A DNA stretch of 64,000 nt from a virus (Duplodnaviria > Caudoviricetes), in the IMG/VR virus record IMGVR_UViG_2854208954_000001, positions 15,498 through 79,497 of that record, one strand, 5' to 3'. Positions within the stretch are counted from its first letter, which is position 1. Every line of letters starts with the position of its first letter. The position numbers and the translations under genes were made by a program. The notes under the pieces are model-generated. The model worked only from the letters and a program-made list of their open reading frames with translations. It was not told the origin of the DNA and did not search any database. Shown one piece after another: positions 14,207-43,350 of this stretch.

Positions 14207-16812
14207 ATGGCGGACAGTTTTGGACTTAAGCTTGGCATTGAGGGCGAAAAGGAATTTAAAAAGTCGCTTGCCGAAATCAATCAGAGCTTTAAGGTGCTTG
14301 GCTCTGAGATGAAGCTTGTGTCCTCGCAGTTTGATAAGAATGACAATTCCGTTCAGGCTTTGTCTGCAAGAAATACGGTTCTTAACAAGGAGATTGATGC
14401 ACAAAAGCAGAAGATGAAACCTTGCGACAGGCACTTGCAAATGCATCAGAGTCATTTGGTGAAACTGACAGGAGAACACAAAGCTGGCAAATTCAGCTTA
14501 ACAATGCCGAGGCATCACTCAACAGTATGGAGCGTGAACTGAACAGTAATAATTCTGCACTTGAACAGGCAAAGACGGATATTGAGGGGACAGAAAAATC
14601 TCTTGAAAAGGTTGACGGTCGGCTTGATGATACTGCCGAAAGTGCCGATGATATGGGCGATGAAATCAAGGACGCAGGCGACAAGGCGGATAAGTCAAAG
14701 GAGAGGTTTTCAAAGCTTGGTTCGATACTCAAGGGTGTGGGCATTGCGATGGGTGCGGTTGTTACTGCGGCTGCCGCAACTGCCGTTAAGCTCGGCAAGG
14801 AGGTAGTTAATGCCTATGCCGACTATGAACAGCTTGTCGGCGGTGTTGATACGCTTTTCAAGGGTTCATCACAGAAGCTGCAAAGCTACGCATCTAATGT
14901 CTATAAAACGGCAGGCCTTTCTGCAAATGACTATATGGAAACTGTTACAGGCTTTTCCGCAAGCCTTATTCAGTCGCTTGGCGGTGATACGGACAAGTCG
15001 GTAAAGTATGCCGATATGGCAATCACGGATATGGCGGATAACGCAAACAAGATGGGTACAGATATGTCACTCATTCAGAATGCGTATCAGGGCTTTGCCA
15101 AGCAAAACTACACCATGCTCGATAACCTTAAACTTGGCTACGGCGGTACTAAAGAGGAAATGCAAAGACTTCTCTCTGACGCAGAAAAAATATCTGGCGT
15201 GAAATATGATATTTCGTCATATGCCAATGTGGTCGATGCAATCCATGTTATGCAGGAGAGTATGGATATTGCCGGCACTACCGCAAAGGAGGTGGAGGGT
15301 ACAATTTCGGGTTCGGTTAATGCGTTGAAATCCTCGGTTACTAACCTTGTGGTAGGATTTGGTGACGCAAATGCTGACCTCGGTGTGTTGTGTGAAAATG
15401 TTGTAACAGCATTTCAGACCGTGCTTGAGAATATCTCGCCTATTGTGAAAAATCTCATCTCAGCCTTGCCGACAGTCATTACCACACTGCTTGAATCGGC
15501 AGGTGAAATGCTTCCCACTGTTCTGGAAACTCTTGCAGAATTGTTTGCACAGGTGCTTGAGGGATTGCTTCAGCTTTTGCCACAGCTGATTCCCGTTGCG
15601 GTATCGGCTTTATTAACAATTACGAATGCAATTGTTGAAAATCTGCCCTTGCTGATTGAGTCGGCAACCTTACTCGTAGCAACTCTCGTACAGGGCCTTG
15701 CAGATGCACTGCCTACACTAATTCCTACTACGGTCAATGCGGTTATGACGATTGTACAGGGACTTCTGGACAGCTTGCCGTCAATTCTTGACGCAGGACT
15801 TGAACTTGTGTCAGCACTTGCACAGGGTATTCTTGATGCACTTCCCGACCTCATATCTAAACTGCCTCAGATTATTATGGGCATAGTTACATTTCTTTTA
15901 AATTCAATACCGCAAATCATACAGACAGGCATTAAGCTGCTGACCTCTCTTGTTAGTGCCTTACCCGATATTATCACAGCAATAGTTAAGGCTATTCCGC
16001 AGATTATCAACGGGATTATAAATGCGGTAATAAATTCAATTCCGCAGATTATTCAGGCAGGCATTGACTTGCTCATTTCACTTGTCAAGGCTCTGCCCAC
16101 CATTATAGTCACAATCGTGAATGCAATACCCGACATCATTTCAGGCATTGTTAATGCTCTTATTGACAATATTCCGGCAATAATTCAGGCGGGTATTGAT
16201 TTGTTGATTTCGCTTGTTAAGAATCTGCCGACTATCATTAAGGGAATTGTAAAGGCAGTACCTAAGATTATTGAAGGCATTGTAAAGGCCTTTGGTTCAC
16301 TTATGTACAAGATTGTTGAAATTGGCGGTAACATTGTAAAAGGCTTGTGGGACGGTATCTGCGGTCTTGCATCGTGGCTCTGGGATTCAGTCAGCGGTTG
16401 GATTTCGGGTATCTGGGACGGCATCTGCGACTTTTTTGGCATTCACTCACCGTCAAAGGAAATGGCATGGGTTGGAGAAATGCTCGTCAAGGGCCTTGCC
16501 GGCTCTATTGACAAGAACGGTGATATGGCTGTTCGTGCCGCCGAGGGTATGAGCAGTGATGTTTCAAGTGTTATGAACTCACTTGCTGATGATATGAAAA
16601 CTGCCTTGCCGACTGATTTCAGCATTGACGGAAATGTTAAAGGATTGGTTGATAATTCAAATTCTGTTGCTTTCGGCAAGAGCGGTCTTTCGCTTGTGCT
16701 GAATATTGCAAATTTTAACAACTACTCAAATGACGATATTTCTCAGCTTACAAACGAGATTATGGAAACTGCAGGTCAGTTTGCCAAAAGGAAAGGAATG
16801 GTATTTGCGTGA
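14207..16812 (+). CDS. Tape measure protein, split by a 1-nt deletion near 14415
   Basis: ORFs 14207-14542 and 14422-16812 join as QKQK(I)ETLRQALAN; amphipathic repeats LPQIIQAGIDLLISLV. Confidence 0.85.
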
Positions 16813-33782: not shown

Positions 33783-34715
33783 TTACATATTAAGTGTACC
33801 AAGCACCTTACCTACACAACGAACATCATCAAATCCGTGTAAAGGTATAGGCTTATAGGCTGGATTAAGTGAAACAAGCTCCTTTTTTCCTAATTTTTTA
33901 ATATACGATTCACCGTTAAGTACAAAAACCCCGATTTCGCCTTCAAAGACACTTGATGTTTGCTTAACAAGCACGGTTTCGCCGTTTGAAAATTTAGGTT
34001 GCATACTATCACCTGATATTTTTAACGCAAAATCAGCTGAAGTAGTCATATCATTTCGTGGAACAGTAAGCCATTCAGCTAAAATATCATCGCCAAGCCA
34101 TGAGCCAGTACCTGCTGAAACCGGTGTTTCATAGAACGGAATTACAATAGTGCTTTCAGCAACAGGCTTCTGCTCAGGAGTTATAAGATTAGTAATTCTT
34201 TTTAATACGGCAACTTCACCGTTGATAAATCTTTTATTGTGAAAACTATAATCGAACACTTTCCCGAAATCCGTTGCTGTTCGAAAATCATCAACATATC
34301 GTTCAATTCTACCTATCAATTCAGTTATTGCAGAAAACAAGTACTGTTTATCTTTGGCAAATAAAGCATCATTATATTGAATTCTTCTTAAAGAATATAA
34401 AACAGAATGAATTCTATCCAAACTATGTTCATCAAGCTCGTCACACATCTTCTCAAAATTAAACATAGATAAGCTATGGTCATCACGAATTTCTTCCTTA
34501 TTTGTTTCATCTCTGCCAAGTAAAATATCAACACTTACATCAAAATAATCAGCCATTTTTATAAGTGTTTTTATATCTGGTTCTCTTTTTCCTGCCTCAT
34601 AAAGAGAAATGGTACTTTCAGAAAGACCGAGAATTTTTCCTAATTCTTTCATTGATAATTTGTGTTCTTTTCGTAATTCTTTTAGTTTAGTCATAAGCTC
34701 AGCCCCTATTGTCAT
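33783..34715 (-). CDS. CI/LexA-like repressor (XRE HTH + S24 peptidase)
   Basis: LKELRKEHKLSMKELG..YEAGKREPD; VSAGTG; GDSMQP; YIKKL. Confidence 0.92.
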   Translation of the reverse strand: MTIGAELMTKLKELRKEHKLSMKELGKILGLSESTISLYEAGKREPDIKTLIKMADYFDVSVDILLGRDETNKEEIRDDHSLSMFNFEKMCDELDEHSLDRIHSVLYSLRRIQYNDALFAKDKQYLFSAITELIGRIERYVDDFRTATDFGKVFDYSFHNKRFINGEVAVLKRITNLITPEQKPVAESTIVIPFYETPVSAGTGSWLGDDILAEWLTVPRNDMTTSADFALKISGDSMQPKFSNGETVLVKQTSSVFEGEIGVFVLNGESYIKKLGKKELVSLNPAYKPIPLHGFDDVRCVGKVLGTLNM

Positions 34716-34723
34716 TATTATAA

Positions 34724-34831
34724 ACTTTACTATTAGTAAAGTAAATTAAACTTTGCAAAATGTCAAGAAAAAACTTGACAAATAGTAAATAAAGGCGTAT
34801 TATATACTTGAAACTTGACAATATGCAAAGT
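34724..34831. promoter_or_regulatory. Lysis-lysogeny switch: four 19-bp operators and rightward promoter
   Basis: ACTTTACTATTAGTAAAGT, ACTTTGCAAAATGTCAAGA, ACTTGACAAATAGTAAATA, ACTTGACAATATGCAAAGT; TTGACA(34775)-17-TATTAT. Confidence 0.75.
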
Positions 34832-35457: not shown

Positions 35458-35630
35458 ATTTATTTGAAAGGAAAAATTTAACTAAAACCGAAAAACTTGA
35501 AAAAATACTCAGAAAATACGGAATAAATTTTGACGATTTAAGACAGCTTAATGAATCTCAGATTAAAGCAGTAGAAACAGACTATTATTCAACTTATGGT
35601 GAATCAATATCAATAATGTTTGATTTTTAA
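35445..35630 (+). CDS. Hypothetical protein
   Basis: GGAGG SD before ATG 35445. Confidence 0.6.
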   Translation: MDRLDLFERKNLTKTEKLEKILRKYGINFDDLRQLNESQIKAVETDYYSTYGESISIMFDF

Positions 35631-35692
35631 GCCGAAACCGCCGCAAGGCGGTCAGCAGGAAATGACCTACCTGCTCTGATGATGGCAGGTCA
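35631..35692 (+). ncRNA. Hammerhead ribozyme, type II with loop-I pseudoknot
   Basis: GCC-GAAA, stem III CCGCC-GCAA-GGCGG, GUC cleavage triplet (35651-35653), stem I AGCAGG/CCUGCU, CUGAUGA core, (U)GGC, pseudoknot UGACCU/AGGUCA. Confidence 0.85.
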
Positions 35693-35707
35693 AAAGGATG
35701 TGATTTT

Positions 35708-37666
35708 TTGATTTATCTAACGGCAAAGGAAGTTGCTGGGATAAAAGGTTGCTCTGAACGATATGTAAAAATGCTCATAAACAATGGAAGTCTTCAGGGT
35801 GATGAAACAATAAACCAAAACAACCGCAAAAAATATTTGATACCTTTAAATGAACTATCCCACTCGGAACAGCTTAAATACTACAAATCGCACGCAATAG
35901 CAATTCCTGAGGATTTGCTCCCCGAACGCAAGACGGAGCGACCCCACAAGGAATTTGATGAATTTTCGGCGGTACAGCGTGAAGAGATTGCCGAATGGAT
36001 AAGGATACTTAATGCTTGGGATGAGTATTGTGCAACATCAAAGTTACAGAAAGTACCTGCAACAGAAAAATTTGTACAACTGCAAAAGGTCGCTAATCCC
36101 GACCTTAACATATCGAAGGGAATTTTGTACCGGAAAAAAAAGGCTTTAAAAGCCGATGATCTTGCAGGACTGCTTGACAATCGTGGAAGTTGGAAAAAAG
36201 GTACATCGTCAATTCCTGAAGAAGTGTGGCAATGCTTTTTAAGTTTTTATCTTGATGAGGCACAGCACCCTATACAGGCGTGCTATGAATACACCGAAAT
36301 GTGGATTAAGCGAGAAGCTCCACAGCTGTTACCTCTCCCTGCTTATGCATCGTTTTACAGGAAAGTACAAACGGCAATACCTAAGCCTGTTGAAATTATG
36401 GGACGGCAAGGTATGAAAGCCTTTAGGGACAGGTGTGCTCCGTACATACGCAGGACATACGAAGGAATGGCGTCAAACGAATGGTGGATTGCAGATAACC
36501 ACACATTTGATGTGCAGACAAAGGGAGAAAACGGAAGTATCCACAGGCTTTATCTTACAGCGTTTTTTGATGCTCGTTCGGGTATTTTTACAGGCTGTTA
36601 TGTGACCGATGCACCGTCATCGCAGGCTACATTGATAGCTCTACGAAAGGGCATAGTTAAGTACGGCATACCCGAAAACATATATGTAGATAACGGTCGA
36701 GAGTTTCTGACATTCGATGTCGGCGGACTTGGTCATAGATTGAAAAAGAGTCAAAAGGACAAGTTTGCACCGCCGCCTGTTTTTGAACGGCTGGGCATTA
36801 AAATGACAAATGCTATCGTACGAAATGCGAAGGCAAAGATTATTGAAAGACGATTTCGAGATGTTAAAGACCGACTTTCAAGACTGTTTCCGACTTATAC
36901 AGGCGGTAATGTAGTCGAACGACCGGAAAGACTTAAAAAGGTAATCAGGGACACCGACAACATACCCACGGATTATGAATTCACTCAGGCAGTTGAGGAC
37001 ATTTTAACCTACTATATGAATGAAAAACCATATAGCGGAGCGGTAAGCTCAGACAGCGGTAAAAGCCGAATGCAGGTTTACAGAGAACAACTTAAAGAAA
37101 AACGAGTCGCCGCAGAACTTGACCTCAACTTGATGTTAATGAGAAGCACAAGAAGTCAGAAAGTCGGCAGGCGTGGAGTACATCTTACTGTTGCAGGCGA
37201 GAAAATTGATTACTACAATGATGACCTTATTTTAAATCATTTTGGAGAATCTGTTTACTGTCGATATGACCCGGAAGATATTTCGGAAGTCAGAATTTAT
37301 GACCTTGATGATAACTACATAATGACCGCTCCAACAGACAATGAAGCAGTCCTTGCCTACGGAGCATCTAAAGATGCAGTTGCTCAGGCACTCCGTAAGG
37401 TTAAGAGCCTTGAAAAACTCACTAAACAGGAACTCAAGGCAAGTCAGATTACAGCATTTGGCAAAGAAACAGCACTCAATCTTGTGCTTGCAACCGCTGA
37501 GGAAAACAAAGCAAATGCCGAGGAAATCAATCCGAAGGTTATATCAGTACACCGTGCCGATGAAACGGCAGAGCAGTTGCCTATGGCAGTTGGTCAGTCG
37601 AATATCGTAACGATAGATAAGGCAAAAATGATAAGAAATCTTGAACAGCGACAAAAGGAGGAATAA
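35708..37666 (+). CDS. Mu-like DDE transposase (MuA-like)
   Basis: N-terminal HTH, WWIADNHTFD, IYVDNGREF, KIIERRF, Mu-transposase C-terminal region. Confidence 0.92.
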   Translation: MIYLTAKEVAGIKGCSERYVKMLINNGSLQGDETINQNNRKKYLIPLNELSHSEQLKYYKSHAIAIPEDLLPERKTERPHKEFDEFSAVQREEIAEWIRILNAWDEYCATSKLQKVPATEKFVQLQKVANPDLNISKGILYRKKKALKADDLAGLLDNRGSWKKGTSSIPEEVWQCFLSFYLDEAQHPIQACYEYTEMWIKREAPQLLPLPAYASFYRKVQTAIPKPVEIMGRQGMKAFRDRCAPYIRRTYEGMASNEWWIADNHTFDVQTKGENGSIHRLYLTAFFDARSGIFTGCYVTDAPSSQATLIALRKGIVKYGIPENIYVDNGREFLTFDVGGLGHRLKKSQKDKFAPPPVFERLGIKMTNAIVRNAKAKIIERRFRDVKDRLSRLFPTYTGGNVVERPERLKKVIRDTDNIPTDYEFTQAVEDILTYYMNEKPYSGAVSSDSGKSRMQVYREQLKEKRVAAELDLNLMLMRSTRSQKVGRRGVHLTVAGEKIDYYNDDLILNHFGESVYCRYDPEDISEVRIYDLDDNYIMTAPTDNEAVLAYGASKDAVAQALRKVKSLEKLTKQELKASQITAFGKETALNLVLATAEENKANAEEINPKVISVHRADETAEQLPMAVGQSNIVTIDKAKMIRNLEQRQKEE

Positions 37667-37669
37667 TAA

Positions 37670-38590
37670 ATGTCGGTAATGTCAGCCAATCCTGAATTAC
37701 AGGAGAAATTAAGGAACTTTATCGAAGAGTGCGGCTCACAAACCAAAGCCGCAAAAGCTCTCGGAAAGTCAGCAGCGACTTTGTCAACCTACTTGAACAA
37801 CCGTTATAACGGTAATTTAAGTGATTTTGAAAAGTTTTTAACAGAGACTTTTGAAACAAAAGCCGCTGCAGAAAATCTCAAATCAGCTCAGGTGCTTAAC
37901 AGCTACAAGCCTACAAGCATAAGCTCAGAGGTTTATGATACAATCCGCTTGTGTCATCTTAAGGGCGGTCTTGCAATTGAGTGTGGCGATGCAGGCATAG
38001 GAAAAACAATGGCTTGTAAAAAGTATGCAGAAGATTATCCGGCTACTGCGATTTATGTGTCTGTAAATCCTTGCTTGGTAACTTTGAGTGCCTTTTTAAA
38101 ACTGCTTTGCAGAACACAGAAAATCACCGCAACAGGTCGCAAAGATGAAATGTGGTTAAGACTTGCAGATAGCTTTGAAGGTGAACGCAAGGTACTCATC
38201 ATTGATGAGGCACAGCATCTGCCGATTAAAACCATTGAGGCTATCAGAGCTTTTTTTGATAGCAACCCACAGCTTGGTATTTGCCTTGTCGGAAACATTG
38301 AAACCGTTACAAATACCGGCAAAAGCAAAGAAGCGTTCGCTCAGATTCGTAACCGTACAAAACTTACCGAAGTAAGGCATACATCAGCAATTAAAAACAG
38401 CGACATTGAGCTGTTGTTTCCTGCCGTTAAGTCCGATGAACGAGCAGTAAGTTTTTTACTTGGCATTGCAAGGTCTGAACAGGGCATCAGAGGAGCAAGC
38501 AATGTTTTTGGAAATGCCGTTGACAACGGAAACATCACCTATGAAGGCTTAATCGCAATGGCAAAAGCTATGCGTATCAAGGTGTTTTAA
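37670..38590 (+). CDS. MuB-like AAA ATPase with N-terminal HTH
   Basis: GDAGIGKT Walker A, LIIDEAQHL Walker B; follows the transposase. Confidence 0.92.
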   Translation: MSVMSANPELQEKLRNFIEECGSQTKAAKALGKSAATLSTYLNNRYNGNLSDFEKFLTETFETKAAAENLKSAQVLNSYKPTSISSEVYDTIRLCHLKGGLAIECGDAGIGKTMACKKYAEDYPATAIYVSVNPCLVTLSAFLKLLCRTQKITATGRKDEMWLRLADSFEGERKVLIIDEAQHLPIKTIEAIRAFFDSNPQLGICLVGNIETVTNTGKSKEAFAQIRNRTKLTEVRHTSAIKNSDIELLFPAVKSDERAVSFLLGIARSEQGIRGASNVFGNAVDNGNITYEGLIAMAKAMRIKVF

Positions 38591-38612
38591 ATAATATTCG
38601 GAGGGATTTTAA

Positions 38613-38849
38613 ATGTCGTTAAGAAAAATCGTGTTACTGCTCGCCGCAGGGTTCAGCACGGGAGTAGTAATGACCGCCGCATTCGGTCAAATGGGTACAA
38701 GGAGCTTTACAGCAGGCGGAGAAATTTGCTTTGTGCCTATGGTGCTCCTGCTTGTATGGGTCGGTTGGATGATCCGTGGCGAAAGCCGAAAGGTAAAAAA
38801 GAGTAAAAGGAGGGGTAACAATGACCGCAGAAGAGTGGAAAAAGGTTGA
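38613..38849 (+). CDS. Small membrane hypothetical protein
   Basis: Two hydrophobic segments, basic tail, GGAGG SD. Confidence 0.6.
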   Translation: MSLRKIVLLLAAGFSTGVVMTAAFGQMGTRSFTAGGEICFVPMVLLLVWVGWMIRGESRKVKKSKRRGNNDRRRVEKG

Positions 38850-39207
38850 CGAAGCCCTTACATCTGTATGGAGTCCGTATGTACATCTCAAAATTGACGG
38901 ATATAAAGTATCTCTGAACCTCACTCAAAAATCACGATTTCAAAATGTTATTGCAGTTTATATCAACGATGAATTTCGTGGCAAGTGGCTTATGGAGGAC
39001 TGCGAAGAACGCAGGAGATTTTGTTGCTGTAAGAGACAGTCGGTAGTTACCGAAAAAGATTGCAAACTTTACGGAGCTCGTAGCAAGAAAGCTAAGCAGG
39101 AACTCAAAGAGAAGTTTGGCTATGATGTGTATTTACCATATTGGACAAACTTTGAGAAAATGAAAAAACATTTTATTGCTAATAACAAAAGCATTGAACT
39201 TTATTAA
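38821..39207 (+). CDS. Hypothetical Mu-like early protein
   Basis: GGAGG SD, coupled ORF. Confidence 0.7.
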   Translation: MTAEEWKKVDEALTSVWSPYVHLKIDGYKVSLNLTQKSRFQNVIAVYINDEFRGKWLMEDCEERRRFCCCKRQSVVTEKDCKLYGARSKKAKQELKEKFGYDVYLPYWTNFEKMKKHFIANNKSIELY

Positions 39208-39224
39208 ATTTCGGAGGGATAAAA

Positions 39225-39521
39225 ATGGAAGATTACACAGTTGAATTTGGAAATGAATTGAGTGGTGCGATAATAGATTCGTTTGCTAAAAAAGCCAAAA
39301 CCGCTGTTTGTGAAAAAAAGGTAGTAATAATTTCGGTTGAAAATTCTGACAAAACAACCGACTCTGTTGTAACAGGAAATGCTATCGATATTCTTGGAAA
39401 AATAGGGTCATTAACAATTGAAGTTATAAAAAAGCTCGAAAAAAATATGGGCAAAACTTTTGCAGATAGAACTTTAGAAGGCTTTATATGTGCAATAAAA
39501 GAGGTTAATGAGCGGAGATAA
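39225..39521 (+). CDS. Hypothetical protein
   Basis: GGAGG SD, in operon. Confidence 0.7.
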   Translation: MEDYTVEFGNELSGAIIDSFAKKAKTAVCEKKVVIISVENSDKTTDSVVTGNAIDILGKIGSLTIEVIKKLEKNMGKTFADRTLEGFICAIKEVNERR

Positions 39522-39529
39522 TCCGCTCA

Positions 39530-39588
39530 CCTTAATGCAACTTCCGCCAACGGGAACGGTCACAAGTCCGTATGAATGCAGAGTGAGG
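39530..39588 (+). ncRNA. Twister ribozyme, type P1
   Basis: P1 CCU/AGG, U^AA (cut 39533/39534), P2 UGCA/UGCA, T2 AC/GU, P3 hairpin, P4 ACGG/CCGU with L4 UCACAAGU, catalytic G39581-A39582, T1 CAC/GUG. Confidence 0.9.
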
Positions 39589-39622
39589 ACAACAATACAT
39601 ATTGAACAGGAGGTCAATTTAT

Positions 39623-39877
39623 ATGAAAACATCAAAGAAAATCTGTAAAAACGGCTCTATTACTCTGCCAAAGCAGATAAGAGGCGAAGCAGGATTGTTT
39701 CCGGGCAATGCTGTTGACATTGAAACAAGTACAGACGGCACTGTTACAATTAAACCGTCTGCTCCCTGTTGTCGCTTTTGCGGTACAGTTGAAAATGTAA
39801 TCATTGCAGATAATGTTATCATCTGCCGCAAATGTGCCGAAAAATTACTTGCAAAGGTGGATAAAACAAATGACTGA
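39623..39877 (+). CDS. AbrB/MazE/SpoVT-family regulator with C-terminal Zn ribbon
   Basis: KICKNGSITLPKQIR..G..V.I...VTIKP; CRFCG..CRKC. Confidence 0.85.
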   Translation: MKTSKKICKNGSITLPKQIRGEAGLFPGNAVDIETSTDGTVTIKPSAPCCRFCGTVENVIIADNVIICRKCAEKLLAKVDKTND

Positions 39878-40505
39878 TTTAAAAAAGCAGATTGATGAGC
39901 TTGCAGGCATTAAAGCAGATATGAGCAAACTCAAAGCACGCAAGGACAAGCTCGAAGCAGAGATTATTATGCAGTGCTCGGAAGACCTTGAAAACACCAA
40001 ATATAAAAGTGTCCATTACGCAGGCACAGAATCAGAGCTTACAGCGGTAACTTCGGAATCTCTCAAAATTACATACAACTCATTTTTGCTCTCAATTTTT
40101 GGCAAAGCATACAAAGATGCGGTTACGGAAAAGACAGAATATTCCCTCTCTGCTCCGGCAAAAAGAATGCTCATCGGTTTGTGGAAGGGCAATTTTGTAA
40201 GATGCACCGTCAAAGAAGTTATTGAACAGATGAACGGCGTGTCTGATGACGAACGCAAACAGCTTGTCAAAAAATGCAAGGGCATTAACTACGATAAGGA
40301 TGTAAACAACATTTTAAAGTTCACAAACCTTTCGGAGGACGATGCAAAAGAGTATGCCTACCTCATTTCAGAGGCGGCTGTATGGCAGGACTTCAAAAAC
40401 CTGCTGACCGTCAACTGTATGGACGAAAGTCATATTGACGATATCCTAATGAAGATACAGAGCAGTTTTGTTGTTGAGGACAGCACAAAGATATCTTTAA
40501 GCTGA
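39870..40505 (+). CDS. Hypothetical protein with N-terminal coiled coil (possibly Gam-like)
   Basis: Coiled-coil N-terminus; Mu semi-essential region position. Confidence 0.6.
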   Translation: MTDLKKQIDELAGIKADMSKLKARKDKLEAEIIMQCSEDLENTKYKSVHYAGTESELTAVTSESLKITYNSFLLSIFGKAYKDAVTEKTEYSLSAPAKRMLIGLWKGNFVRCTVKEVIEQMNGVSDDERKQLVKKCKGINYDKDVNNILKFTNLSEDDAKEYAYLISEAAVWQDFKNLLTVNCMDESHIDDILMKIQSSFVVEDSTKISLS

Positions 40506-40506
40506 G

Positions 40507-41019
40507 GTGATTGATTTGTTAAAGCCACAGCAGACACAAAGAATATACGCAATGGCGGCACGGCTCGGTGTGTTGGAATCGGGCAACAAAAACGATATGC
40601 TGCACACGATTGTTTATCGTCTTACTCAAAAGGAGAGCATACGCACTCTTGATGAAAACGAATACCGAACAGTTGTCGCAGAACTTGCCGAAAGGCTGAA
40701 ATTGCAGAGCCTCACAGAGCCGCCGAAACCGTATAAGAAGAAAAGATACGAGGACAGCGGCAGAGGAAAAATGTCAGACGGTCAGAAACGCAAAGTGTGG
40801 CAGTTGATGTACCAGCTTGAAAAATACGATACCGAGCCTACCACAGCTAAACTCGGCGACAGACTCTGCGGTATTATAAAGAAAGAGTTAAAAATTGACT
40901 GTACATCAAAGCAGCCTTTTAGGTGGCTGACATATAATCAGGGCATAACCTTGATTGAAAAACTTAAAAAGTACATTGACAGTGCTCAAAGGAGGAAGGC
41001 TGGTGAAAATAAATCTTGA
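40507..41019 (+). CDS. GemA/DUF1018 family regulatory protein
   Basis: IYAMAARLG..LH......ESIRTL..E; RLCGIIKK..FRWLT....LIEKLK. Confidence 0.8.
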   Translation: MIDLLKPQQTQRIYAMAARLGVLESGNKNDMLHTIVYRLTQKESIRTLDENEYRTVVAELAERLKLQSLTEPPKPYKKKRYEDSGRGKMSDGQKRKVWQLMYQLEKYDTEPTTAKLGDRLCGIIKKELKIDCTSKQPFRWLTYNQGITLIEKLKKYIDSAQRRKAGENKS

Positions 41020-41290: not shown

Positions 41291-41394
41291 CAATGAAGAA
41301 AAAATAGGATATTCTTCCTCTACGGGAGTACGGTTTTATAAGGTATTATTAAGTTACAGACTTAATGATACCTTATTTTTTTGGAGTAGTTTTT

Positions 41395-41736
41395 ATGAAC
41401 TTTGCGTCAGACACTTGGTGGCTCTTCGGTCTTATCATTTCGGGAGCTATTGCTATTATCAGTTTTTTTCTTAAAAGGACAATTAACGAAGCGGATAGAC
41501 ACGACAAGGAAATCAAAGAAATTCAGCTGTCATATGTTACGAAAGATGAATTAAAAGATATTAAAACCGATGTCAACAAATCTATCGGTAAGTTGCAAAC
41601 TGATGTTGAGCAAATAAAGGAAAACTGTTTGACCAAAAAAGATTACTACAACTCTATCAACGAAGTTAAGGACGAAATAAAGACACAAAACAAGCTCATT
41701 TTGGAGCTTTTAAGAGGAGGTAATAATAATGACTAA
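41395..41736 (+). CDS. Membrane-anchored coiled-coil protein
   Basis: N-terminal TM then coiled coil; first gene after Mor. Confidence 0.7.
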   Translation: MNFASDTWWLFGLIISGAIAIISFFLKRTINEADRHDKEIKEIQLSYVTKDELKDIKTDVNKSIGKLQTDVEQIKENCLTKKDYYNSINEVKDEIKTQNKLILELLRGGNNND

Positions 41737-42618: not shown

Positions 42619-43124
42619 TGAACATCAAGTGGTATGTTTTGTATGTAAACACAGGACAAGAACATGCTGTTGCGGAACAGCTCCGACATCGTGGTTATGA
42701 TGCCATTGTGCCGATTGAAAACAAACTGATACGCTCAAAAGGCAAGTGGATAACCCAACCGCATATACTTTTTGACGGCTATGTTTTCGTTCGTATGGAT
42801 TACGAGTGGTCAAAATATTATGTGTTTAAGGGCATTCCGAACATTATTAGATTGCTCGGAGGTGGAACAAGCCCTATCCCTCTTACGGACACAGAATCAG
42901 AGTTTATTTTGACTTTGAGCGAACTTTTGAAAACTCCCTCGGTGCTTAAATTCACTGATGACGGTTACGAAACAGTCAGCGGATTTTTGGCTGAGAATAA
43001 AGATAAAATTGTGAAAGTACAGAAACGATACAAGAAAGCAACGGTCAAAATTACCCTTGCAAGTGAGCCGACTGAGCTTACAGTATCGTTTACCGAACAA
43101 ATGCCCGAACAGACGGCGGATTGA
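42615..43124 (+). CDS. NusG-paralogue transcription antiterminator
   Basis: NGN domain WYVLYVNTGQE, LFDGYVFV, IPNIIRLLG; KOW-like C-terminus. Confidence 0.85.
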   Translation: MMNIKWYVLYVNTGQEHAVAEQLRHRGYDAIVPIENKLIRSKGKWITQPHILFDGYVFVRMDYEWSKYYVFKGIPNIIRLLGGGTSPIPLTDTESEFILTLSELLKTPSVLKFTDDGYETVSGFLAENKDKIVKVQKRYKKATVKITLASEPTELTVSFTEQMPEQTAD

Positions 43125-43209
43125 TTCGTCTCCACCCGATGCAACGGCTGACATACGGCGAAGTCACCGATAACCTCAGGTTAGCGGATGGCGAAGCTAT
43201 ACCCAAGTT

Positions 43210-43320: not shown

Positions 43321-43350
43321 TAAACACCTTTTAACGGGTGTTTATTTTTA
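43321..43350 (+). terminator. Second terminator-like hairpin before packaging genes
   Basis: TAAACACC-TTTTAACG-GGTGTTTA + TTTTT. Confidence 0.65.

Follow-up and report, generated by a model that had tools for sequence, protein, structure and literature searches.

Self-cleaving ribozymes of the hammerhead and twister classes are enriched near specific bacterial genes, most strongly near Mu-like phage genes, for a reason that is unknown (PMC10085705). The association with Mu-like genes is credited there, in summary form, to Roth 2014 and Weinberg 2015. The same ribozyme classes share phage-like contexts (PMC8782182). Clustered hammerheads flanking prophage genes were described by Perreault et al. 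(2011, PMC3088659), with transcript processing as the proposed function. The type-P1 twister (RF03160; Roth et al. 2014) runs in the order P1, scissile N-A step, P2, T2 strand, P3, P4 with its loop L4, AA linker, P2', G-A, T1 strand and P1', and has conserved core bases, two pseudoknots and optional P0 and P3 stems (PMC5408937, PMC6154101). According to these two reviews, which cite Roth et al., the optional stems P0, P3 and P5 are found in 21%, 78% and 1% of twisters, respectively.

The RNA described here shares this order, the core bases, both pseudoknots and both optional stems, and differs in T1 (CAC/GUG), in T2 (AC/GU), in a P1 of 3 bp, in its Rfam score of 52.2 bits and in the frequency of P0 in its subfamily (92% vs 21% overall). 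It lies in a window of 64,000 nt (positions 15,498 to 79,497 of the IMG/VR virus record IMGVR_UViG_2854208954_000001), within the 101 nt that separate a 98-aa ORF from a gene for an AbrB-fold/zinc-ribbon protein (Table 1). The early region of the phage is ordered as a divergent repressor, a promoter-like site, small ORFs, a hammerhead, MuA, a MuB-like ATPase, three small ORFs, P0 and the twister, the 84-aa AbrB-fold gene, a 233-aa ORF and GemA. The assignment to a Mu-like early operon made in the preliminary description was thus confirmed by the S24/HTH repressor, MuA, the MuB-like ATPase and GemA. As in the published Mu-like association (PMC10085705), Mu-like genes are adjacent, a second ribozyme stands within a few kb, and the ribozymes are intergenic and on the coding strand; here the operon holds two ribozyme classes and a RAGATH motif. 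A twister in a Mu-like prophage operon is the already published, typical setting of bacterial twisters, and as such the find is solid and ordinary.

Table 1 Features of the twister, its flanking genes and the Mu-like early region (positions in the window)
Feature	Position	Strand	Basis or remark
Divergent HTH/S24 repressor	33783-34715	-	Family searches
Promoter-like site	34775-34803		11/12 match; early promoter-like
Type II hammerhead ribozyme	35630-35694	+	Rfam RF02276, 42.5 bits, above gathering score 37
MuA, TTG start	35708-37666	+	Family searches
MuB-like ATPase	37670-38590		Family searches
Upstream 98-aa ORF, no known family	39225-39521	+	ORF call, family searches
P0 hairpin, 8 bp, loop GAUAA	39509-39529	+	Sequence, minimum free energy fold
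Type-P1 twister ribozyme core	39530-39589	+	Rfam RF03160 52.2 bits, own model R1, covariation
P1, 3 bp	C39530-G39588, C39531-G39587, U39532-A39586	+	Sequence and covariance-model alignment
Scissile step (predicted)	U39533/A39534	+	Sequence and covariance-model alignment
P2	UGCA 39536-39 with UGCA 39577-80	+	Sequence and covariance-model alignment
T2 pseudoknot	AC 39540-41 with GU 39566-67	+	Read by hand
P3	UUCCG 39542-46 with CGGGA 39551-55	+	Sequence and covariance-model alignment
P4	ACGG 39556-59 with CCGU 39568-71	+	Sequence and covariance-model alignment
T1 pseudoknot	CAC 39561-63 with GUG 39583-85	+	Read by hand
Shine-Dalgarno AGGAGG of downstream gene	39608-39613	+	18 nt past twister, 9 nt before ATG 39623
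Downstream 84-aa gene, SpoVT/AbrB (MazE-fold) N-domain and four Cys	39623-39877	+	PF04014 MazE_antitoxin, phrog_4681, alignment A4
RAGATH-28 motif (ribozyme-associated motif class)	43115-43197	+	Rfam RF03052, 67.1 bits

The preliminary description had mapped the twister-P1 fold position for position and had named a search with the Rfam twister-P1 model as a check. In a sensitive scan, RF03160 matched 39529-39589 (+) over its full length (model positions 1-68), and every element lies where it had been placed. The E-value of this match was 4e-11 in a local search, 8.6e-9 over the entire window and 2.5e-12 when the 79.5-kb IMG/VR provirus record was searched, and a chance match was ruled out by these values and by the conservation described below. 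The helices P1, P2 and P4 follow in the order of type P1 with the scissile N-A step within the P1/P2 internal loop, and both pseudoknots of this type are present, T1 between L4 and the 3' strand of L1 and T2 between L2 and L4. The model alignment further showed that the conserved unpaired core is kept completely (A-A after the scissile base, G-U..A-A-G in L4, A-A before P2' and G-A before T1). These unpaired nucleotides are invariant among 23 variants of the lineage, so that the claimed conservation of the scissile step and of G39581 was upheld. In the alignment, G39581 falls on model position 60, where the invariant GAGGG block starts; we take it, partly on the basis of the 4OJI sequence, to be the general-base guanine, corresponding to G45 of O. 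sativa and G48 of env22. Its role as a putative general base agrees with the published numbering dU6-A7/G45 (PMC5408937, PMC6154101). The outermost P1 pair is an A39529/A39589 mismatch. A nested-only minimum free energy fold of 39505-39592 returned P0, P1, P2, P3 and P4 (-29.5 kcal/mol, z -3.58), and none of 200 shuffles of this segment folded as well as the native sequence. At the level of sequence and structure, 39530-39589 is a bona fide member of the type-P1 twister class, and it is predicted to be very probably active in self-cleavage.

With 52.2 bits, the match stays below the gathering score that Rfam sets for twister-P1, 67.2 bits on 68 model positions; this value is unusually high and serves as an operational cut-off rather than describing a property of the RNA. 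A scan of the window at the gathering threshold accordingly reported no twister and three other RNAs, namely a SAM riboswitch, the type II hammerhead and RAGATH-28. The first of these is a SAM-I riboswitch at 1440-1563 (-) with 61.5 bits, far from the Mu-like region. The departures of the twister from the RF03160 consensus are in the T1 and T2 segments, the J4-2 linker (AUGAA vs consensus gUAAA), the short P3 loop and the A/A at the outermost P1 pair. The differences in T1 (CAC/GUG vs consensus CCC/GGG) and T2 (AC/GU vs consensus GC/GC) are compensatory, and RF03160 scores these positions as conserved single-stranded bases; part of the shortfall lies at these pseudoknot positions. Our own covariance model R1, built from the lineage alignment, scores the same twister at 83 bits. 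In 18 genome loci (L064, L088, L123, L126, L070, L079 and others), the Rfam gathering score was passed by a single one of 34 clear twisters, and the remaining 33 were below it. Routine Rfam-based annotation thus under-counts this twister subfamily of Mu prophages.

The twister was retained at the same place in all 35 related IMG/VR proviruses, which were gathered via the downstream protein and which contain 23 distinct variants of it. The A-U pair of T2 was changed to G-C in 8 of these variants and was unpaired in none. Scanning species-representative genomes for the T1-variant core yielded 95 stretches, mostly from Oscillospiraceae, Lachnospiraceae, Ruminococcaceae and other gut Clostridia, and R1 recovered 101 twisters in the genome loci, often two or three within a few kb. 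The genome of Enterocloster lavalensis (G008, to which locus L055 belongs) carries four subfamily twisters in two loci (C9:52529-53718 and C10:25004-26112), presumably two Mu-like prophages. No phage in INPHARED matched 39200-40520 at the DNA level.

Pairs were counted on the R1 alignment of 90 distinct copies, into which both pseudoknots were written; since R1 does not contain them, they cannot have shaped the alignment. The predicted pair cells form in 95.8%, vs 31-42% in controls with the partner shifted by 1-3 columns, both-sided changes occur in 17 of the 21 pairs, and the observed covariation was matched by no shuffle. P2, P4 and P1 are paired in 98.6%, 96.1% and 86.2%, respectively, with compensatory changes in each. 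T2 is 100% paired (pair 13-70, GC:80 / AU:9). T1 is also 100% paired (middle pair 65-93, AU:81 / GC:7 / CG:1 / GU:1; outer pair 64-94, CG:88 / UA:2), and because the pattern of the genome search had fixed T1 as CAC/GUG, its covariation comes only from the extra model-found copies in the same loci, whereas the T2 and stem statistics were unconstrained by the pattern. The compensatory pairs previously claimed for P2, P4 and both pseudoknots were thus substantiated. That P1 has just 3 bp was also borne out, and a short P1 of 3-4 bp proved to be the norm of the subfamily.

The 8-bp hairpin with the upstream stop codon, noted already in the preliminary description, is the optional stem P0. The TAA of the 98-aa ORF (39519-39521) sits in its loop, and its 5' arm is formed by the last codons of this ORF. 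A hairpin of at least 5 bp abutting P1 (0-3 nt away) was found in 82 of 89 distinct subfamily copies (92%), as against 8-27% when control offsets within these loci were tested likewise. The subfamily copies have 44 distinct P0 arm sequences with a median dG of -11.2 kcal/mol, and throughout the subfamily P0 leaves a 3' overhang of 4-7 nt on the predicted upstream product. Its enrichment relative to the 21% of twisters overall suggests a specific role, that of a hairpin protecting the 3' end of the upstream cleavage product. The hairpin passes directly into P1 (CCUUAAUGC). An intrinsic (Rho-independent) terminator was considered for P0 and rejected, since there is no U-tract and no + strand terminator was called; on the reverse strand P0 is accompanied by a weak T-run only, which is not conserved in relatives.

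We estimate a probability of roughly 80% that the locus holds an active type-P1 twister with a P0 stem in a Mu-like early operon, which cuts the transcript and thereby 'cuts and caps' separate messages; for cleavage in vivo and for effects on RNA stability this is what we infer. The long early transcript would fold at the twister and cut itself between U39533 and A39534. The upstream product, containing MuA, MuB and the three small ORFs, would end in the stable P0 followed by CCUU with a 2',3'-cyclic phosphate, and a tail of 4-7 nt offers little hold to 3' exonucleases. On the downstream product, the first nucleotide would be an adenosine with a 5'-OH, enclosed in the folded twister, and the Shine-Dalgarno sequence of the downstream gene would follow about 18 nt past the twister. 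In this way the ribozyme would split the operon transcript into two messages, both with structured new ends, which could then differ in stability and translation. Lou and colleagues are said to have described, in 2012, synthetic ribozyme insulators such as RiboJ. There, too, a self-cleaving ribozyme just upstream of the ribosome-binding site strips off the RNA that precedes it and gives the message a structured 5' end, but RiboJ is an engineered part, whereas the twister described here is natural. Cutting and capping also agrees with the processing of long phage transcripts that has been proposed for clustered prophage ribozymes (PMC3088659). The points counted against this reading are the score of 52.2 bits against 67.2, the 3-bp P1, the AUGAA linker in J4-2 and the 3' product with its ribosome-binding region, which lacks special thermodynamic structure (z +0.8).

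The gene following the twister had been called AbrB-like, and it does match Pfam MazE_antitoxin with the SpoVT/AbrB fold. Alignment A4 shows four invariant cysteines in the family, C50, C53, C68 and C71 (CxxC...CxxC), which suggest that this segment is probably a C-terminal zinc ribbon. The AbrB-Zn family is widespread among Clostridial Mu-like prophages (28-74% identity). Its gene is the commonest one directly after twisters of the subfamily; 37 of 100 genome twisters directly precede a homologue. The layout shared in the subfamily is stop codon, P0, twister, short A-rich spacer, own GGAGG-type Shine-Dalgarno sequence and start codon, with a median of about 22 nt separating the start codon from the end of P1. 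The link was also seen in a sample chosen independently of the twister. An order-wide genome search with the AbrB-like alignment of 25 proteins yielded for the most part AbrB/SpoVT paralogues of the hosts (255 of 301 genomes), the phage type being represented by the six top hits only. A twister lies upstream on the same strand in five of these six phage-type homologues (adjacent in four) and in none of 24 host AbrB paralogues, which served as a negative control. Other ribozyme classes were not found before the phage-type AbrB-Zn gene in this small sample of six homologues. The GAGG of the P1 3' strand was rejected as a Shine-Dalgarno sequence, since the window and most relatives have their own GGAGG nearer to the start codon. 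The sequence ACUUCC of the T2/P3 5' strand (39540-45) is complementary to GGAGGU of the Shine-Dalgarno region (39609-14), and CCUCC-like P3 strands occur in many relatives. The two segments pair in the minimum free energy fold of the 3' product, at an ensemble frequency of 0.008 and z +0.8; such an alternative conformer could sequester the ribosome-binding site, and it is thermodynamically unfavoured here according to the folding model.

The main uncertainty of the mechanism concerns the fate of the downstream product, and down-regulation is a live alternative. Collins and co-workers reportedly found in 2007 that the 5'-OH left by the Bacillus glmS ribozyme is a signal for degradation by RNase J1; if glmS cleavage triggers decay in this way, twister cleavage could destabilise the downstream message, not protect it. 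The two systems, the twister by prediction, have in common that a 5' leader in a Firmicute cleaves itself and that the resulting 5'-OH decides what becomes of the mRNA downstream. However, glmS is activated by a metabolite and acts in a monocistronic leader, whereas the twister stands between cistrons and has no evident ligand domain. Applied to this operon, an active twister would mark the AbrB-like and later early message for RNase J-type 5'-to-3' decay and spare the transposase message. The hosts are Clostridia, which generally possess RNase J, P0 would shield the upstream product only, and the 3' product with its ribosome-binding site is not unusually structured, all of which would suit such decay. 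Against it, the 5' end of the twister 3' fragment is reported to lie inside the fold, where access to it is poor (PMC8782182), and a strong Shine-Dalgarno sequence is kept at a conserved short distance in each downstream gene, which suggests that expression is intended. Down-regulation of the downstream genes appears rather unlikely.

The position of the stop codon raises a second alternative, in which a ribosome terminating in the P0 loop would open P0 and occlude both P1 and the scissile site, making cutting dependent on ribosome traffic. An upstream ORF was detected in 31 of the 35 related proviruses, in three versions (98, 102-103 and 132 aa), and it ends at a TAA in the P0 loop in 30 of them and immediately ahead of the hairpin in L023. 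This arrangement speaks for coupling to translation, but in the whole subfamily just 22 of 82 P0 loops contain any stop triplet, counted without regard to frame, and stop-in-loop is a local feature of the lineage of the window which may merely reflect gene packing. Moreover, P1 is dispensable for cleavage in vitro (PMC5408937), and twister cleavage is fast and would probably precede the arrival of the ribosome. We therefore regard cleavage controlled by translation as improbable. That P0 is kept despite three different upstream ORFs indicates that the hairpin is passed on together with the ribozyme and independently of the upstream gene. Related proviruses swap their upstream ORFs right at the ribozyme (L002-L036, about 300 nt upstream of the twister), all three versions finishing in codons that belong to the 5' arm of P0, and in one genome locus (L085:1434-1977) two twisters flank a homologue of the 132-aa ORF. 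Possibly the conserved ribozyme also acts as a recombination junction.

This exchange of genes exactly at P0 could also mean that the conserved stretch of about 60 nt is itself a recombination site and that the twister-derived structure no longer cleaves, being a relic, a structured spacer, a protein-binding site or a recombination junction. The score below the gathering cut-off, the short P1 and the non-consensus linker would be in line with a loss of activity. The catalytic core is invariant, however, and the pseudoknots are maintained by compensatory changes in 90 distinct copies, a pattern to be expected only under selection for the active fold, and a structure that has ceased to cleave is very improbable.

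The twister is not the only RNA element of the operon. The hammerhead ends 13 nt before the TTG start of MuA, and the twister is 3.9 kb downstream of it. The hammerhead is predicted to cut after C35653, and its 5' product to end in the stem III hairpin (CCGCC-GCAA-GGCGG) and about 1-2 nt (UC), which parallels P0 of the twister. In four of five related records the hammerhead is kept about 3.9-4.0 kb upstream of the twister, and a type II hammerhead directly before MuA was also found in other genomes with Clostridial Mu-like prophages. RAGATH-28 occurs in 5 of 18 related genome loci (L126:729-813, L055:5795-5882, L064:4359-4438, L066:60-145 and L085:6444-6531); by name it is absent from the literature searched. 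It is followed in the window by a terminator-like hairpin (43321-43344). The strongest + strand terminator-like site of the region, an 18-bp hairpin followed by a T7 run at 41338-41376, overlaps the start of an ORF (41365-41736), and the early transcript may end there. MuA, MuB or GemA homologues are present in the loci (up to 8 kb) of 83 of 100 genome twisters, and the layout of hammerhead II-MuA, twister-AbrB and RAGATH-28 recurs across Clostridial Mu-like prophages. The nearest named relatives are Ruminococcus and Ruminococcaceae genomes (72-80% identity in MuA and MuB), from which it follows that the host probably belongs to that group.

The predicted cuts of the hammerhead and the twister delimit an RNA of 3,880 nt (35654-39533). 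The two ribozymes bracket the MuA-MuB cistrons and their pairing is conserved, and 5'-OH and 2',3'-cyclic phosphate ends would suit RtcB. Excision of this 3.9-kb RNA and joining of its ends by an RtcB-type ligase into a circular mRNA is nevertheless hardly to be expected, since neither complementarity between the ends nor a guide to join them was seen, Perreault et al. sought circular or spliced products of clustered prophage hammerheads and detected none (PMC3088659), and ribozyme number and placement vary among related phages, many loci having, e.g., two twisters.

The preferred reading, cleavage into separate messages with structured ends, can tentatively be extended to both ribozymes. The P0-twister, and likewise the type II hammerhead with its stem III, might each be a self-contained 'cut-and-cap' module between cistrons, whose upstream end resists 3' exonucleases and whose downstream 5'-OH is buried, giving different lifetimes along one early transcript. 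Compared with the published ribozyme operons of prophages, the locus adds the details that the twister is the immediate leader of an AbrB-fold/zinc-ribbon gene, that a type II hammerhead stands right before MuA and that P0 forms the 3' end of the upstream product. These details were not found in the citing literature, in which the content of Roth 2014 and Weinberg 2015 is available through summaries.

The incremental points are that the Rfam threshold misses the subfamily, that P0 is near-universal in it and that it is tightly linked to the AbrB-fold/zinc-ribbon gene. The conserved architecture of hammerhead II-MuA, P0-twister-AbrB/zinc-ribbon and RAGATH-28 could serve as a model system for the role of ribozymes in Mu-like phages. 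If the proposal of a cut-and-cap module is true, it would explain in concrete and testable terms why the self-cleaving ribozymes of bacteria are most concentrated in Mu-like phages.
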